Source: Escherichia coli
Lineage (GTDB): Bacteria > Pseudomonadota > Gammaproteobacteria > Enterobacterales > Enterobacteriaceae
Assembly: GCF_048403405.1 (NCBI RefSeq)
Contig: NZ_CP183129.1
Strand: one strand, 5' to 3'
DNA length: 64,000 bases
In this document: positions 5,194 through 52,303 of the stretch, piece by piece
Numbering within the stretch: the stretch's first letter is position 1
Layout of the letters: each line of letters begins with the position of its first letter
Position numbers and translations under genes: made by a program
Notes under the pieces: model-generated
The model's database searches: none
The model's input: the letters and a program-made list of their open reading frames with translations, nothing else
Told to the model about the DNA's origin: nothing

Positions 5194-5202
5194 GTCCATA
5201 AG

Positions 5203-5436
5203 AAAGCCCCTCCGGAGAGGGGCTAAAGCCGCGTATCTGTATCATCATGCACATGGTGCCGGGTGCCTCCCGGTGAGTTCAGCCCGGTGCCACTAAACCC
5301 GCGTCATTCTCGTTTTGATAATCAGAGATTATACCGTCACCAGTCGCCCCTCCGCTCAGGGGGATTCACCATGCGAAATTTTTTTAACAAATGCCCAGTC
5401 TGACAGGCAACTGTCAACTTACTGAATTGTGAGCAA
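5203..5436 (-). repeat. copy 1 of a tandem ~220-bp structured element (candidate sRNA unit)
   Basis: Direct repeat of 5690..5904 (roughly three-quarters identity by eye); shares the hairpins agcccctc-cgga-gaggggct and ggtgccgggtgcctcccggtga; on the minus strand the unit ends in hairpin plus T-tract. Confidence 0.6.
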
Positions 5437-5689
5437 CATAGCATTTAACGGGGAACCTGTTTTCTGCAGTAAAAAGGCCCACCGGAGCGGATGGGCCTGG
5501 AAGGATAGCGGTCATGTGATGCCGGTTTCCCGGTAACTCAGCACCGGTATCTGAGTCAACGTTTTCTCTACTGGGTCATTTCCGATACGCCCTGCCTGCT
5601 GACAGGCTTTCATCACATCTGAAAATATAGCACCCTGACTGATACTGTAGTACCTAAGGTTCCAGAAACTGTGATGTATCCGGCACAGA

Positions 5690-5904
5690 AAAGCCCCTCC
5701 GGAGAGGGGCTGGAGAGTGGCGCTATGTGCCATTGCATGGTGCCGGGTGCCTCCCGGTGAATTCAGTACCAGCACCTGAATCCGCGATTATCCCATATAC
5801 CTACTCGCTGATTGCCCCTCCGCACAGGGGGATTCACCATGCCAGTTTCTTTTAACAAACTCCCCGCAAACCAGACAACAGTCAACCGCCTGAATTGTGA
5901 GACA
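5690..5904 (-). repeat. copy 2 of the tandem structured element
   Basis: Same hairpin set and shared segments (gggggattcaccatgc, tgaattgtgag) as copy 1. Confidence 0.6.
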
Positions 5905-5945
5905 TTTAAAAAAAAGCCCGCAAAAGCGAGCCAGGGAAAATAAGT

Positions 5946-6022
5946 GTGGCGCGTTGTACTGGATTCGAACCAGTGACCGATTGCTTAGAAGGCAATTGCT
6001 CTGTCCGGCTGAGCTAACAACG
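5946..6022 (-). tRNA. argO: tRNA-Arg (anticodon UCU), phage argO-like
   Basis: Reverse complement folds as canonical cloverleaf: acceptor GCGTTGT/ACAACGC, anticodon loop CTTCTAA, T-loop TTCGAAT, 3' CCA. Confidence 0.85.
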
Positions 6023-6035
6023 CAGGATACAGATA

Positions 6036-6113
6036 ATGGACCGCCTTCGGGGACCCGAACTCCGCGCAACCAGCTTCGAAGGCTGGCGCTCTTTCCTGAT
6101 GAGCTAATGGCGG
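6036..6113 (-). tRNA. argN: tRNA-Arg-like (anticodon UCG inferred), phage argN-like, possibly degenerate
   Basis: Cloverleaf with anticodon stem CCAGC/GCTGG and loop CTTCGAA, but one acceptor mismatch, one T-stem mismatch and atypical T-loop TTCGGGT. Confidence 0.6.
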
Positions 6114-6120
6114 TATGTGA

Positions 6121-6196
6121 TGGTGGCCCTTGCTGGATTTGAACCAGCGACCTGGCGATTATGAGTCGCTCGCTCTCACCACTGAGCTAAAGGGCC
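6121..6196 (-). tRNA. ileZ: tRNA-Ile2-like (anticodon CAU), phage ileZ-like
   Basis: Reverse complement GGCCCTTTAGCTCAGTGGTGAGAGCG...CTCATAA...TTCAAATCCAGCAAGGGCCACCA closely resembles E. coli ileX as recalled. Confidence 0.85.
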
Positions 6197-13001: not shown

Positions 13002-13157
13002 TTACTCCTCAGGTTCGTAAGCTGTGAAGACAGCGACCTCCGTCTGGCCGGTTCGGATTCGTACCTCGCAGAGGTCTTTCCTCGTTACCAGTGCCGTCAC
13101 AATGACGGTTAAACAGATGACGATCAGGGCGATTAACATCGCCTTTTGCTGCTTCAT
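13002..13157 (-). CDS. hokD: Hok/Gef-family type I toxin (HokD/RelF-like), with overlapping mok-like leader ORF to 13214
   Basis: MKQQKAMLIALIVICLTVIVTALVTRKDLCEVRIRTGQTEVAVFTAYEPEE matches HokD as recalled. Confidence 0.85.
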   Translation of the reverse strand: MKQQKAMLIALIVICLTVIVTALVTRKDLCEVRIRTGQTEVAVFTAYEPEE

Positions 13158-13394
13158 AGCCTGCTTCCCCTTGCCTTTCGGCACGTAAGAGGCTAACCTA
13201 CATTTGTGAGACATAGATTGGGCCTCAGATTAATGTTAAGCGTCTTGCAGGACGCGAAATGTTAACTGGGGCTTTTCTCTATCTGCCTTTCAGTGTTCAT
13301 GCCTGAGACAGATAGCCTCAAGCACCCGCAGCCATTCTACTTAACTCACGTCACCTCGCCAATATGAAATCAATCAGAAAGGTGATCCATAAAA

Positions 13395-14081: not shown

Positions 14082-14135
14082 GAAAATAGCACAGAGTGTA
14101 GCATCAGAGTGTACTGACCCCAAAAAGTTGGACAG

Positions 14136-14987
14136 TTAAACACGAGGCATATAGGTCTGATTCCGATATTCAATTGGAGTCAGACCTTTTAATTTCAGGC
14201 TAATTCTTCTGCTGTTGTAGTATTCAATATATTCCGTAACAGCATCCTTCAGTTCGCTTATATTACTGAACTCATCAAGATAAAAACACTCCGACTTTAA
14301 GGTTCCAAAGAAACACTCCACCACAGCATTATCCAGACAATTGCCTTTTCTGGACATGCTTTGTTTAATACCATGTTCTTTAAGGATATTTTGATATCTT
14401 CTCATACGATACTGCCATCCCTGGTCAGAGTGCAGAACAGGATGCTCGTGAGGATTAAGCTTTTTGAATGCCTGATCGAGCATATTCTCAACCATGTTCA
14501 TCACTGGTCTTTCCGAAAGGCTGTAAGAAATAACTTCGTTGTTGAAGAGATCTATTACTGGAGACAAATACAGCTTGCGCCCATTGACTGCAAATTCAGT
14601 AACATCGGTAACCCACTTCTCGTTTGGCCGCGTAGCCTTGAAATCTCTTTGGAGAACATTAGGGGCGGTTTGCCCTACCTCTCCTCTGTAAGAGCGGTAT
14701 CGCTTGACCTTAATCGCTGCTTTAAGTGAGAGGGTTCCCATCAGGCGCTGAACAGCTTTATGGTTAATCTGTTTCCCTTCTCGATGAAGAGACAGCGTTA
14801 CCCTACGGTATCCGTATCGGCCTCTATTCTCGTGATAAATCTCACTAATACGCTTTTTAACGTCCGCATACTTGTCAGGCTTGCTGAGAGCCTTTAGATG
14901 ATAATAAAACGTACTGCGCGGTATCTCCGCAGCCCTGAGAAGCTCATCAAGAGGATAAAACTGCCTTAGCTCGTTGAGTACTTTCAC
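14136..14987 (-). CDS. insK: IS150 transposase OrfB (integrase/DDE domain)
   Basis: 283 aa; matches InsK as recalled; overlaps OrfA in the -1 frame. Confidence 0.9.
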
Positions 14988-15505
14988 TTTTTCGTGGGAT
15001 GAGCTAAGGCTTTCAGCTTTTTTAGATACATAAGCCGCGTTTCAAGAAATCGAACTTGCCTTTCAAGATCCTCAATGCGTCGGTCTTTTGACAGCTCCAA
15101 TGCTGATGCCGCTTTTTCTGGATCAACTGATATTGCAATGTTTCTTTTGGTGCCAATCTTGAGCGCGCGTAAACCAGCTTCTCCGCGCTCTTCATAGACC
15201 TTCAGCCACCTGGCTACAGAACCACTACCAGCAAGCATAAAGTGAGCAGCAGCCTGATTAAGGGACATGTGCTGCTCGATCACAGCTTTCACGACCTTAA
15301 TACGCAACTCTGGATCAGCACTAACGCCTTTAGGTTTGGGAATTAAACCTTTTTCTCCATGTTTTTCATAGAGGGCAACCCATGTCCTGACCTGGGTTCG
15401 GGGGACACCAAAACGTGCCGAGATGATCCTGTAACCATCATCAGTTGTGAAGTAGTGATTCACGACTTCAAGGCGCTTTTCAAAAGGGTATTTTGGCTTT
15501 GACAT
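14984..15505 (-). CDS. insJ: IS150 transposase OrfA (HTH)
   Basis: 173 aa; MSKPKYPFEKRLEVVNHYF... matches InsJ as recalled. Confidence 0.9.
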   Translation of the reverse strand: MSKPKYPFEKRLEVVNHYFTTDDGYRIISARFGVPRTQVRTWVALYEKHGEKGLIPKPKGVSADPELRIKVVKAVIEQHMSLNQAAAHFMLAGSGSVARWLKVYEERGEAGLRALKIGTKRNIAISVDPEKAASALELSKDRRIEDLERQVRFLETRLMYLKKLKALAHPTKK

Positions 15506-15680
15506 ATTAGGGGCTATTCCATTTCATCGTCCAACAAAATGGGTGCAGTACAGAGCAGGGCTATCGGGAATATATGTCTAAATCTGGTAATATCTGGTTT
15601 TGACGCAAAGCGGACAACCACGCTGGCTCTACCCTGCGCCATGAAAATGTCAATTCACATCTGAACTAATGCTCTTTAAT

Positions 15681-21529: not shown

Positions 21530-21587
21530 TTTCTGGTGACATTTGGCGGTATCAGTTTTACTCCGTGACTGCTCTGCCGCCCTTTTT
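21530..21587 (+). ncRNA. dicF: DicF small RNA
   Basis: tttctggtgacatttggcggtatcagttttactccgtgactgctctgccgcccttttt is near-identical to K-12 DicF as recalled, including terminator hairpin. Confidence 0.85.
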
Positions 21588-24770: not shown

Positions 24771-25019
24771 ATGGCAAGACTTATTCTGCTCACTGAGTGG
24801 GCAAAAGAGGAATTCAGTGAACCGGTCCCTACTCCGAGTACGTTAAGTAAATACGCTAAAGCCGGAATGATATTTCCTCTCCCCAAAAAAGTTGGAAGAC
24901 GCTGGCGAGTGGATCCGCAAGCTCGCTTTGTCGGAATGGTAAACAAGCCGGAGGTGATCGCCACAGATCACCCTGCTTTGAAGAGGATACTGGAAGATGG
25001 CGCGCCCGCGAAAATATAA
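24771..25019 (+). CDS. excisionase (Xis/AlpA-like)
   Basis: 82 aa; MIFPLPKKVGRRWRVDPQARF resembles lambda Xis; 3' end overlaps int start. Confidence 0.7.
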   Translation: MARLILLTEWAKEEFSEPVPTPSTLSKYAKAGMIFPLPKKVGRRWRVDPQARFVGMVNKPEVIATDHPALKRILEDGAPAKI

Positions 25020-26127
25020 AACCGATGTTCCGGGATTATCTCCGTATTTTGACAAAAGAAATAACAAAGTTTACTGGCGTTACAGGCATCCCATAACAGG
25101 CAAAAATCACGGTCTCGGCAGTATTGACCAGAAACTGGCAGAAACTATTGCAGCAGAAGCGAACAGCCGTCTTGCCCGGCAGCAAATGGAACAAATGCTC
25201 AGTCTGCAGGAGAAAATTATTAGTGATACCGGCGGTTCATCAACCGTTACCATTTTTCTGAATAATTACAGAAAAATTCAACAGGAAAGATATGAAAACG
25301 GCGAGATCAAACTCAACACGCTGAAACAGAAAGCGGCCCCTCTCAGGGTATTTGATGAACGTTTTGGCACCAGACCGTTAGATGCCATAACCGTAAAAGA
25401 TGTGGTATCAGTACTGGAAGAGTACAAGGCCAGAGGACATAACAGAATGGGACAAATTTTCAGGAAAGTACTGATCGATGTTTTCCGGGAAGCTCAGCAA
25501 ACGGGCGATGTCCCGCCAGGCTTTAACCCTGCAGAATCGGCAAAAAAACCGCAGGTGCGGATATCAAGACAGCGACTGACTTTTGATGAGTGGATGATGA
25601 TTTATAACGCAGCGGAAAAGAATGGTTACTTTTTACAGCGCGGTATGCTGCTGGCACTGATGACAGGCCAGCGCCTTTCAGATATTTGCAAAATGCAATT
25701 TTCGGATATCCGGGATGGTTATCTTCATGTCGAACAGCAAAAAACAGGAACCCGGATTGCCATCCCTCTGGCTCTGCGTTGCGATAAATTAAATCTCACC
25801 CTGGATGATGTAGTGTCATCCTGCCGCGATTGCGTTCTTAGTCCGTGGCTATTGCACCACCATCACGCGAAAGGGACAGCTAAGCGCGGCGGGATGGTTA
25901 AGCCAGCAACATTAACCGTTGCATTTAAAAAAGCCCGGGATTCTGTGGATTACAACTGGCGTGCTAATGGCACCCCACCCTCTTTCCATGAGCAGAGATC
26001 TTTATCAGAGCGATTGTTCAGAGAGCAGGGGGTTGATACCAAAATTTTGCTAGGCCATTCGAATCAAAAAATGACCGATATTTACAACGATGTACGCGGT
26101 AAGGAGTGGAAAAAACTGGTCATTTGA
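24997..26127 (+). CDS. phage integrase (tyrosine recombinase)
   Basis: 376 aa; C-terminal catalytic region ...LLGHSNQKMTDIYNDVRG; ends 45 bp from the ompW stop. Confidence 0.9.
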   Translation: MARPRKYKTDVPGLSPYFDKRNNKVYWRYRHPITGKNHGLGSIDQKLAETIAAEANSRLARQQMEQMLSLQEKIISDTGGSSTVTIFLNNYRKIQQERYENGEIKLNTLKQKAAPLRVFDERFGTRPLDAITVKDVVSVLEEYKARGHNRMGQIFRKVLIDVFREAQQTGDVPPGFNPAESAKKPQVRISRQRLTFDEWMMIYNAAEKNGYFLQRGMLLALMTGQRLSDICKMQFSDIRDGYLHVEQQKTGTRIAIPLALRCDKLNLTLDDVVSSCRDCVLSPWLLHHHHAKGTAKRGGMVKPATLTVAFKKARDSVDYNWRANGTPPSFHEQRSLSERLFREQGVDTKILLGHSNQKMTDIYNDVRGKEWKKLVI

Positions 26128-26133
26128 TGACCA

Positions 26134-26169
26134 GTTTTGCAGAAGAGTTTTGCAGAGGTTTTGCAGAGA
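26134..26169. repeat. three tandem ~12-bp repeats (GTTTTGCAGAG) at the prophage-chromosome junction
   Basis: gttttgcagaag / agttttgcagag / gttttgcagaga between int stop and ompW stop. Confidence 0.6.
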
Positions 26170-26172
26170 AAA

Positions 26173-26826
26173 TTAAAAACGATATCCTGCCGAGAACATA
26201 AACACCCACGGGTCAAGGCGTACATTGTCGCTATAACTGCCTTTAGCCAGTTTACGACCATCAGATTTATACTTCGCGGTGGTATCGATATCCATGTACC
26301 AGACTGACATGTTAACCAACCAGTCACGGTTAATCAGATAATCAACCCCCACCTGCCCGGCAGCTCCCCAGGAATCTTTCAGACTGAGATCGGAAAGCCC
26401 CGCCTCTTTGCCATGATCGTTAAATCCATTATCAAAGAAGGTGGTGTAGTTAATACCTGCCCCAACGTAAGGACGGAATTTGCTGCTGGCATCACCAAAA
26501 TACCACTGCGCCATCAGTGTTGGCGGCAGATGATGAACGGTTGCAATATCGCCGGTCGCCCGGGTGCCGATTTTATGGCGGAACGGCGTCGCTGCCAGCA
26601 ATTCCACACCAATGTTATCGGTCGCCATATAAGTAAACGTCAGGCCCAGTTGCGTGTTATTGGTCACGCTGAATCCACCCAGACTTCCTAACGTACCACC
26701 AGCACCTTCTGTTGGACGTACGGTTGCAGACCCTGCACGCATAAAAAATTCGCCTGCTTCATGCGCATAGGCACTGCCAGAGAGAAGAGTTGTTACTGCC
26801 AAAGCCGCCACTGTTAACTTTTTCAT
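26173..26826 (-). CDS. ompW: outer membrane protein OmpW (variant C-terminal loop)
   Basis: Signal peptide MKKLTVAALAVTTLLSGSAYA and body match OmpW; residues ~183-200 differ from the K-12 sequence as recalled. Confidence 0.9.
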   Translation of the reverse strand: MKKLTVAALAVTTLLSGSAYAHEAGEFFMRAGSATVRPTEGAGGTLGSLGGFSVTNNTQLGLTFTYMATDNIGVELLAATPFRHKIGTRATGDIATVHHLPPTLMAQWYFGDASSKFRPYVGAGINYTTFFDNGFNDHGKEAGLSDLSLKDSWGAAGQVGVDYLINRDWLVNMSVWYMDIDTTAKYKSDGRKLAKGSYSDNVRLDPWVFMFSAGYRF

Positions 26827-27182
26827 ATCCGCTCCGTCGTTATGGTTATAAAAACGTGACGAATATACCTACATTGGAGTAACAAATGATCCTACATAGG
26901 TCACATTACATATGATAATTCACCATTTATTGATCTGGATTAATTTAGAAGTTGCATTGAGAATCCTGGTTAATGTGATTTAAATCAATTTTTAAATATT
27001 TTCGCTACGCAAATATTAACTCGACCGCCACTTGCCGCGATTTGCCCACGTCTGAAGGCCAGCAATTACCTCCGCTTTACAAAGATATGCTTTTCCATAC
27101 AAGACCTGATGCTGCCACCCGAGGCTTAACCAGGGTACAATTGCCCGCTAATTAACACCTGCATAAAACTCAAGGAGAGTGC

Positions 27183-34026: not shown

Positions 34027-34077
34027 ATAATCGCTTTCGGCGTAATAAATATCCTCCGGCATAGCCGGAGGTTTTTC

Positions 34078-34762
34078 AAATGCGCCTATAAGGCTCTCTT
34101 ACCAGCCGCGCCCTAACAGGCGCACACGATCTGACATTTGCATCCAACTTCGTTACTTACGGCCCGTAAACGGGCTGCCCGGATAGGGAATCGATAACTG
34201 CTCTCCCATTTTATCCTCTTCAAGCTGGTGCTTTATGTAATCCTGTATCTTCGCCGTGTTCTTACCCACCGTATCGACGTAGTACCCTCTGCACCAGAAC
34301 TCCCTGTTCCTGTATTTGAATTTCAAATCACCAAACTGCTCGTAAAGCATCAGACTGCTTTTCCCTTTCAGATATCCCATAAAGCCGGATACGCTCATTT
34401 TGGGCGGGATCTCCACAAGCATATGGATATGATCTGCACAGCATTCAGCTTCCAGAATCCGTACACTTTTCCACTCACACAGCTTTCTCAAAATACTGCC
34501 TATTGCTCTACGCTTCTCTCTGTAGAACACCTGTCTTCGGTATTTTGGCGCAAAAACTATGTGATATTTACAGTTCCATCGGGTGTGCGCTAAGCTCTTT
34601 TCGTTCCCCATTGGGACCCCCTTTTGATTTCTTGTTTGACACTTGCAGTTGCCAGACCGCAAGGTGTTTTAACAAATCAAAAGGGGTTTTAATAACTGGC
34701 TTAAAGCTGAAAGCTTTCCGGAACCCCCAGCCTAGCTGGGGGTTTTCTGTGCACAAAAAAGG
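34078..34762 (-). mobile_element. IS200-like insertion sequence (IS200/IS605 family), boundaries approximate
   Basis: Single Y1 transposase ORF; hairpin ccccagc-cta-gctgggg near the tnpA-upstream end; occupies a short intergenic in K-12. Confidence 0.65.
34153..34611 (-). CDS. tnpA: IS200-type TnpA (HUH/Y1 transposase)
   Basis: 152 aa from MGNEKSLAHTRW; HxH motif (ADHIHMLVEIPP) and conserved Tyr region. Confidence 0.85.
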   Translation of the reverse strand: MGNEKSLAHTRWNCKYHIVFAPKYRRQVFYREKRRAIGSILRKLCEWKSVRILEAECCADHIHMLVEIPPKMSVSGFMGYLKGKSSLMLYEQFGDLKFKYRNREFWCRGYYVDTVGKNTAKIQDYIKHQLEEDKMGEQLSIPYPGSPFTGRK

Positions 34763-51737: not shown

Positions 51738-51822
<85 letters not shown>

Positions 51823-51856
51823 TCTCAAGCATTACCTCAAAATTTGAATTACCCTT

Positions 51857-51941
<85 letters not shown>

Positions 51942-52007
51942 TCACTTTCAAAAGTCCCTGAACTCTCAAACGAATCCGTAATTAAATATTCTGCCCAAGC
52001 GGGGAAG

Positions 52008-52097
52008 GATGAGAAGCTTCGACCAAGGTTCGACTCGAGCGCCAGCGAGAGAGCGTTGCCGCAGGCAACGACCCGAAGGGCGAAGCGCGCAGCGCTG
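52008..52097 (+). CDS. tpr: protamine-like protein Tpr in the tyrT operon 3' region
   Basis: 29-aa [32 protein letters not shown] followed by partial tRNA 3'-end repeat. Confidence 0.6.
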
Positions 52098-52303
52098 AGT
52101 AATCCTTCCCCCACCACCATCACTTCCTGTAAATACTCAAAACCTGTTACTCCGAGCTAATTCTGCCCAATGGCACCGCGTTTACCGGACCTACAATATC
52201 CTCCCCTGAAGTTCGGATAAGCGAAGCGCATCCGACAACTCACCCCGTACCGTGCCCATAAAAAAACCCCGCCGAAGCGGGGTCTATGCAAACTAAAATT
52301 CGC

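Follow-up and report, generated by a model that had tools for sequence, protein, structure and literature searches.

Sequence comparison of a lambda-like prophage junction in Escherichia coli ompW points to a phage-supplied gene end flanked by candidate arm-type integrase sites

The window analyzed here, a 64 kb stretch of Escherichia coli DNA, contains a site at which a phage integrase gene and ompW converge and nearly meet. The question raised by this locus is whether the short repeats between the two genes, and an OmpW C-terminus that differs from that of K-12, belong to the host or were brought in by the phage. The integrase gene int (24997–26127, plus strand, stop codon TGA at 26125–26127) encodes a 376-amino acid lambda-type tyrosine integrase with an N-terminal arm-binding domain, and its start is overlapped by the excisionase gene xis (24771–25019, plus strand, 82 amino acids). 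The ompW gene occupies 26173–26826 on the minus strand as an intact open reading frame of 217 amino acids, which in the account given below is a chimera. The open reading frame coordinates agree with the first-pass annotation that 45 bp (26128–26172) separate the two stop codons.

The protein products fit an integration module of the lambda type. The xis product matches Pfam Exc (PF07825, E 1.4e-7) and the PHROG 629 excisionase family (E 3.7e-35), and the identical gene in E. coli strain 118UI is annotated as an excisionase by RefSeq. In Int, the Pfam domains Arm-DNA-bind_1 (PF09003, residues 2–71, E 1.6e-21) and Phage_integrase (PF00589, residues 193–367, E 1.9e-16) were detected. Its likeness to lambda Int comes from a search of the PDB, in which the protein aligned near full length with the lambda Int structures 5J0N, 1Z1B and 1Z1G (E ~1e-55), and the TGQR, HE.RS, LLGH and Y motifs align between the two proteins.

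An integrase gene adjoins ompW in 1,714 of 5,426 complete E. coli genomes, and elsewhere ompW is followed by yciE or trpA. Because the core of the putative attachment site occurs just once in the window, the second att site must lie outside it, and we therefore took this site from strain 118UI, which is 99.4–100% identical to the window by BLAST apart from three IS differences. The far boundary of the 118UI prophage, ~54 kb away from the integrase, coincides with an OmpW pseudogene that is annotated beside yciE. A three-way alignment of the window junction, the 118UI far end and K-12 showed that the ompW 3′ remnant at the far end is identical to K-12, that a 31-bp core, GCGGTGGTATCGATATCCATGTACCAGACTG, is common to the window attL and the 118UI attR, and that the window departs from K-12 exactly at the phage side of this core. 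A second att copy at the far prophage end, one of the checks put forward in the first-pass annotation, is thus present in 118UI as the core together with a K-12-type remnant.

Another proposed check, a comparison of this ompW with that of prophage-free strains, led to the same place: divergence from K-12 starts at the core, and from 26307 on ompW is near-identical to the K-12-type gene. In a second pair of strains the exchange is seen with another ompW background. The ompW body of strain MS20677 is divergent (88% protein identity to that of the window), yet it ends in a phage-type C-terminus, and the prophage-free strain 20595 has the ompW body of MS20677 with another, native C-terminus. The far end of the MS20677 prophage carries the native 3′ end as in 20595, damaged by an 11-bp deletion. 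This displaced end (MS20677 attR, L019 31609–31738) is annotated as frameshifted, and as a result of the deletion precise excision would no longer restore an intact ompW in this strain.

Taken together, the attL/attR pairs of 118UI and MS20677 confine strand exchange to the 26-bp sequence GGTATCGATATCCATGTACCAGAC(T/C)G at window positions 26281–26306. This core, which reads GGTATCGATATCCATGTACCAGACTG in the window and covers codons W176–T182 plus 5 bp, must hold the strand-exchange point. Its first 21 bp are invariant in nine of nine aligned junction and native sequences; the IMG/VR variants L088 and L093 differ at the first bases of the core. A core-type inverted repeat of 6 bp, GTGGTA(12 bp)TACCAC, is found in attP and in K-12 attB, and the window reads TACCAG in place of its second half, which leaves the repeat only suggestive.

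From these alignments it is close to certain that 26128–26306 represents attL (B-O-P′) of a PPompW-family lambda-like prophage inserted in the 3′ end of ompW. With the same near certainty, the last 35 ompW codons (26176–26280), the stop codon and the candidate terminator beyond it are phage DNA. Recombination within the core joins the host-encoded ompW body (26307–26826, minus strand, residues 1–175 and part of codon 176) to a phage-borne 3′ end (26173–26280, minus strand) that comprises the stop codon and codons 183–217, that is, the end of strand 7, loop L4 and strand 8. The ompW reading frame stays intact but gains a phage-encoded L4, last strand, stop codon and hairpin, and the original 3′ end remains as a pseudogene at the far end beside yciE. 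The marks of integration into a gene 3′ end were all found, namely a reading frame restored by element DNA, the displaced end at the other junction, and a fragment of the gene within attP. The proposal in the first-pass annotation that integration had exchanged the end of ompW for a phage version is therefore borne out by the attL, attR and K-12 alignments as well as by the attP described below.

It could be argued that the divergent C-terminus is a plain chromosomal ompW allele of this strain to which the prophage is unrelated, given that native 217-residue alleles exist, for instance in strain 20595 and E. albertii. We regard this explanation as extremely improbable. It would leave unaccounted for the K-12-type 3′ end that persists as a remnant at the far prophage end, the onset of divergence exactly at the core, the fact that attP forms have the allele in one piece with int and the P arm, and the exchange seen between MS20677 and 20595. 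Moreover, a search for this ompW allele apart from the phage junction returned no genome, as 105 genomes carry the allele at ≥99% and an equal number, 105, carry the allele plus the phage repeats at ≥99%. The same allele in strains lacking the prophage, which the first-pass annotation had named as one of two observations that together would speak against gene-end replacement, was thus not encountered.

The uninterrupted site is available in Escherichia phage 204576 (CP025907.1), in which the int stop, three repeats, the ompW-like 3′ end, the core, an A/T-rich arm and a fourth copy of the repeat motif GTTTTGCAGA are contiguous. The A/T-rich arm is the same as that at the 118UI far end. The 380-bp attP of this record contains exactly four zero-mismatch copies of GTTTTGCAGA, all in one orientation, and when up to three mismatches were allowed no independent fifth motif appeared within it, the sole extra match overlapping the fourth copy on the reverse strand. 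With the first and fourth copies as its limits, the minimal attP spans ~287 bp. Several IMG/VR contigs share this layout; the comparison with that collection comprised ten informative contigs, because most end exactly at the int stop. Read in order, the attP consists of the int stop inside a hairpin, three GTTTTGCAGA copies, the ompW-like 3′ end, a core of at most 26 bp that codes for WYMDIDT, and an A/T-rich P arm followed by the fourth GTTTTGCAGA, which is located ~120 bp past the core. One IMG/VR contig (IMGVR_UViG_643886067_000001, L039 2629–4128) has int, repeats, ompW-like end and core joined after ...CCAGACCG to a truncated fimbrial usher-like open reading frame rather than to ompW, which reflects either a rearrangement between elements or the use of a secondary site.

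The first-pass annotation had offered two readings of the repeats, as integrase arm sites or as an att-associated scar. Since they belong to the intact attP of a phage record, the scar is ruled out, and the comparisons that follow favor arm sites. The annotation was also right that there are three tandem repeats, as exact copies of GTTTTGCAGA lie on the plus strand at 26134–26143, 26147–26156 and 26158–26167 (repeats 1 to 3), but not that their unit is 12 bp. The spacing is 13 and 11 bp, so that the unit is 11 bp and the first one 13 bp, and Tandem Repeats Finder reports a period of 11 with 3.1 copies and a score of 58. At one mismatch or fewer, GTTTTGCAGA has no further occurrence in the 64 kb of the window. 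As for the other arm, a single exact copy is present in the 49 kb locus at the far end of 118UI, at 119 bp from the core and with the same orientation. Five P-arm variants that are ~80% identical all retain GTTTTGCAG at a fixed distance, and homology between them stops right after it. A repeated motif distinct from the core is thus present on both arms of attP, with three copies on P′ and one on P, all exact.

The motif is also better conserved than its surroundings. Across seven aligned junctions the repeat 10-mers are invariant, except in E. coli G8 in which the repeat 1 unit is deleted, and repeat 1 is unchanged in further junctions read from IMG/VR. Repeats 1 and 2 are separated by 3 bp of variable sequence (AGA, GGG or GGA), and the ompW fragment beside the repeats differs by up to ~20% among the aligned junctions. 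In variants L088 and L093 the first base of repeat 3 is an A. Kluyvera georgiana, Raoultella ornithinolytica and another enterobacterium have three copies with the 13/11 spacing after very different ompW ends. Only two of the repeats are present in E. coli G8 (L012, 595–628), a lysogen from which a 13-bp unit has been deleted, and in some metagenomic variants, among them the fragment P0017, in which the ompW stop codon is lost.

In lambda, attP has the arm-type sites P′1–P′3 beside int and P1 on the other arm. The module studied here resembles the lambda attP/Int/Xis system in having an Int with arm-binding and catalytic domains, an xis that overlaps int, and an int that ends beside the P′ arm, as well as three tandem candidate arm sites about one helical turn apart beside int and a far-arm site in the same orientation. 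There are also differences. The arm motif is C/AAGTCACTAT in lambda and GTTTTGCAGA here, and lambda attP has two P-arm sites whereas one P-arm copy was found here. The P′ sites lie ~110–145 bp from the core, compared with ~55–85 bp in lambda, a difference explained by the 105 nt of coding sequence in the arm. Furthermore, the core is located inside a protein-coding gene and the int stop in the loop of a candidate terminator. A consensus for IHF binding, YAANNNNTTGATW, is matched perfectly by three of the five variants of the P arm and with one mismatch by the arm of the 118UI type.

On the strength of these comparisons, the four GTTTTGCAGA copies are probably arm-type sites to which Int would bind through its N-terminal domain, with the C-terminal domains acting at the core. 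The repeats might instead have nothing to do with Int binding and represent slippage products without a role, part of a 3′ untranslated region or terminator that acts at the RNA level, or a site for Xis, Fis or IHF. Repeat 1 indeed overlaps the 3′ arm of a hairpin that forms the stem of a candidate terminator, so that its conservation could be partly due to the hairpin; the copy number ranges from two to three; and the repeats would lie on the ompW transcript just upstream of a U-tailed terminator, as in some small RNAs derived from 3′ untranslated regions. However, a fourth exact copy is present on the other arm, far from where the ompW transcript ends and at the very point where phage homology stops. 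The 10-mers stay constant while spacers and flanks vary, their number and position mirror the lambda P′ sites beside int, and Int carries an arm-binding domain. We therefore consider a function other than Int binding quite unlikely.

The hairpin in question, AAAACTGGTCAT-ttg-ATGACCAGTTTT, is located at 26112–26138 and spans the int stop codon. When folded on the ompW strand it forms a 12-bp stem followed by a U run, with a free energy of −17 kcal/mol and a z-score of −5.8, and none of 200 shuffled sequences was as stable. A simple terminator scan of the window did not list this hairpin, which was found by RNA folding. In variant junctions ETEC1732 and ETEC4067 the stem carries a compensatory pair of changes, C>T and G>A, the first of which is synonymous in int. 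The hairpin between ompW and yciE in K-12 is replaced by the phage hairpin. Most likely it serves as an intrinsic terminator in both directions, ending transcription of ompW as well as of the convergent int gene.

Similar hairpins after ompW in Klebsiella, Enterobacter and Kluyvera raised another possibility, namely that hairpin and repeats were an ancestral native 3′ untranslated region of ompW captured by the phage. This idea was rejected on finding that the hairpins of loci where trpA adjoins ompW are unrelated and that foreign DNA or remnants of int lie downstream at the loci that do have this hairpin. Just past the ompW stop codon, Citrobacter, Klebsiella indica, Kluyvera georgiana, Raoultella ornithinolytica and other enterobacteria have between one and three CTGCAAAAC units (loci L109, L113, L116, L117, L128–L130, L134, L139 and L172). 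These are followed by a CTGGTC...GACCAG hairpin, and an intact integrase is missing within 1.5 kb; L116 and L129 have int remnants only. More degenerate versions of unit and hairpin follow ompW in Klebsiella and Enterobacter. Judged by sequence, the CTGCAAAAC/hairpin loci in other genera look like old attL remnants, in which case the ompW terminator of many species may be element-derived.

What the prophage does to the OmpW protein can be read from the same alignments. The window protein is identical to K-12-type OmpW up to ...WYMDIDTTA and then has KYKSDGRKLAKGSYSDN in place of K-12 NYKLGGAQQHDS, which makes it five residues longer; the final VRLDPWVFMFSAGYRF is again identical to K-12. This matches the description in the first-pass annotation of a C-terminal region unlike K-12, five residues longer, with its final strand kept. 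OmpW matches PDB entries 2F1T and 2MHL (E ~1e-122), and the strand list of an AlphaFold model (mean pLDDT 81.4, pTM 0.72) reads as an eight-stranded barrel. In the model, strand 7 comprises residues 169–188, the loop residues 189–195 and strand 8 residues 196–216, and L4 caps the last hairpin, on the side of the barrel that also bears the helix of L3. Phage DNA thus encodes the outer portion of the last hairpin and the whole of strand 8, and it also contributes the stop codon and the candidate terminator.

At least seven phage-borne L4 versions were found, none of which equals the K-12 loop among the variants examined. The most frequent is KYKSGVTTVKDS (type A, in a 212-residue OmpW), present in O157, CE10, ST131 and others and in ~1,441 genomes at ≥95%. 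The version in this window, KYKSDGRKLAKGSYSDN (type B, in a 217-residue OmpW), is present in ~165 genomes out of ~1,714 lysogens. The remaining versions are NYKFNGTPVKDA in variant junction ETEC1732, SYKSNGTPVKDA in TW10690, SYKFNGTPVKDA in ETEC4067 and L088, KASYKLNGAPVKDS in L093, and SYKMGGVQQRDS in the metagenomic fragment P0017. Two more variants with single-residue changes in L4 came from a search with the OmpW C-terminus, both in short protein fragments only. Strand 8 behaves differently from the loop, as the intact alleles have 3–9 synonymous differences (at ~11 synonymous sites) and no nonsynonymous ones, which indicates that the phage-borne fragment has been kept functional.

The origin of the long loop is suggested by its distribution. 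In strand 8 of the window fragment, the first six codons agree with the long-loop class and the last ten with the K-12/O157-type class, so the fragment looks like a mosaic. At loci with trpA immediately next to ompW, namely those of E. albertii, Escherichia sp. E1V33 and strain 20595, the long-loop class is native, and long loops are also found in the Citrobacter amalonaticus/sedlakii group. Since long loops are native in those hosts, capture from an earlier host is the simplest reading. The 217-residue L4 allele would then be a passenger from an earlier host with a long-loop ompW of the E. albertii/Citrobacter amalonaticus class, kept functional by selection for a working OmpW, with no dedicated conversion function. 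Among 39 enterobacterial sequences, no 12-residue stretch of OmpW is more variable than L4 (1.39 bits compared with a protein mean of 0.46), and L4 starts exactly where the att core ends. Such variability is compatible with exchange driven by elements but falls short of proving it.

The loop swap could also be an adaptive lysogenic conversion, in which the new L4 alters a receptor or epitope and shields the lysogen from OmpW-dependent phages, bacteriocins or antibodies, and in which the many phage-borne L4 alleles would reflect diversifying selection. The number of phage-borne versions, their departure from the K-12 loop in the variants examined, and the coincidence of the most variable stretch of OmpW with the end of the core all fit this idea. 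So does the modeled position of L4 on the side of L3, which is described as extracellular in a study of colicin S4. OmpW was reported there as the receptor for this colicin, and recently also as that of E. coli phage RB68. The first-pass annotation had called OmpW a phage receptor; for E. coli phages this is based on one recent report, that on RB68. The contacts proposed for colicin S4, however, are D116, H117 and E120 in L3, which is still host-encoded after integration, and for this reason colicin S4 resistance is unlikely to be the purpose of the swap. In addition, the loops carried by phages do not exceed the natural range of L4 sequences in enterobacteria, as passive capture predicts. An adaptive role thus appears doubtful, and we prefer to view the allele as a captured passenger. 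As a whole, the account of an attL in ompW with a phage-supplied 3′ end, candidate arm sites, a terminator and a captured L4 allele is in our judgment very likely to be correct.

The insertion site, textbook knowledge in STEC genomics, and the PPompW system are already published and very common, and the novelty is therefore low. Integration in ompW was reported earlier (Creuzburg 2011, as cited in PMC3603311), and ompW is listed among the most occupied integration hot spots in a review (PMC3603311). The PPompW lambda-like prophages of E. coli were named by Nakamura et al. (2021, PLoS Pathog, PMC8112680), who required an integrase >90% identical to the PPompW integrase and a location at ompW, defined 121-bp attL/R sequences and verified attP by PCR. 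PPompW prophages were present in 44% of the 767 complete genomes of that study, in which every copy examined was judged to be defective for packaging. The int 3′ end and junction of the window have 98.1% nucleotide identity over 624 bp to eleven PPompW/Stx2 records, int adjoins ompW, and the deposited PPompW records annotate a ~121-bp ompW-like duplication. Integrase, target gene and duplication are thus the same, but the window has the minority 217-residue L4 allele, with ~165 genomes, rather than the 212-residue O157-type allele with ~1,441. The portion of PMC8112680 covered by a limited literature search treats the 121 bp as an att duplication and makes no mention of arm-type repeats, a terminator hairpin or an altered OmpW protein. 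What is added here is a map of attP that includes candidate arm sites, the candidate terminator, the catalogue of phage-borne L4 versions and the ompW junction remnants in other genera.

Supply of a gene 3′ end by the element, such that the gene stays intact, is shared with phage 21/e14 in icd and with phages in the 3′ ends of tRNA and tmRNA genes. In the icd case the displaced gene end stays at the other junction (PMC3603311). The ompW case differs from these in that the loop encoded by the replaced segment is surface-exposed and hypervariable, with altered amino acids and a length difference of five residues, and in that ompW phages carry differing versions of this segment.

Several other features were observed in and around the prophage. 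Between ompW and yciC, RefSeq annotates a YkgJ-family pseudogene fragment (window 27066–27155) that is also present in 118UI, K-12-type and every other genome checked, whether lysogenic or not, and an intact YkgJ-family gene lies just inside the far end of the MS20677 prophage (L019 30191–30523). One attB sequence inside a prophage has been traced to the ykgJ/ecpE region (Nakamura et al., PMC8112680). Relative to 118UI, the window lacks one IS3 copy and has two other IS insertions by BLAST. An IS3-family insertion within the prophage at 14110–15550, with open reading frames at 14136–14987 and 14984–15505 (NCBIfam IS3 transposase), is absent from 118UI, whose prophage has IS3 copies elsewhere. 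Also absent from 118UI is an insertion of ~710 bp between yciU and oppF (34044–34755) with a 169-amino acid open reading frame and an Rfam STnc490 match, which looks like IS200. Further Rfam matches were obtained at 5194–6196, 13152–13327, 21531–21582 and 51738–52119; those in the prophage are two STnc100, three tRNAs, sok (beside hokD) and DicF (beside dicB), and those in the chromosomal part of the window are two tRNAs and RtT.

An attP map for an integrase found in about one third of sequenced E. coli aids the calling of prophage boundaries and the design of integration tools. That ompW is rewritten rather than disrupted matters for OmpW as a receptor, a vaccine antigen and a typing target, and what appears to be a native ompW 3′ end and terminator may often be element-derived, given the remnants in many genera. 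A broader and tentative proposal, which we think unlikely at present, is that ompW-targeting elements exchange L4, along with the last strand and the terminator, among strains and even across genera, and that integration would alter sensitivity to phages, bacteriocins and antibodies. If so, much of the L4 diversity of the Enterobacteriaceae, and the OmpW displayed by about one third of E. coli, would be element-encoded.
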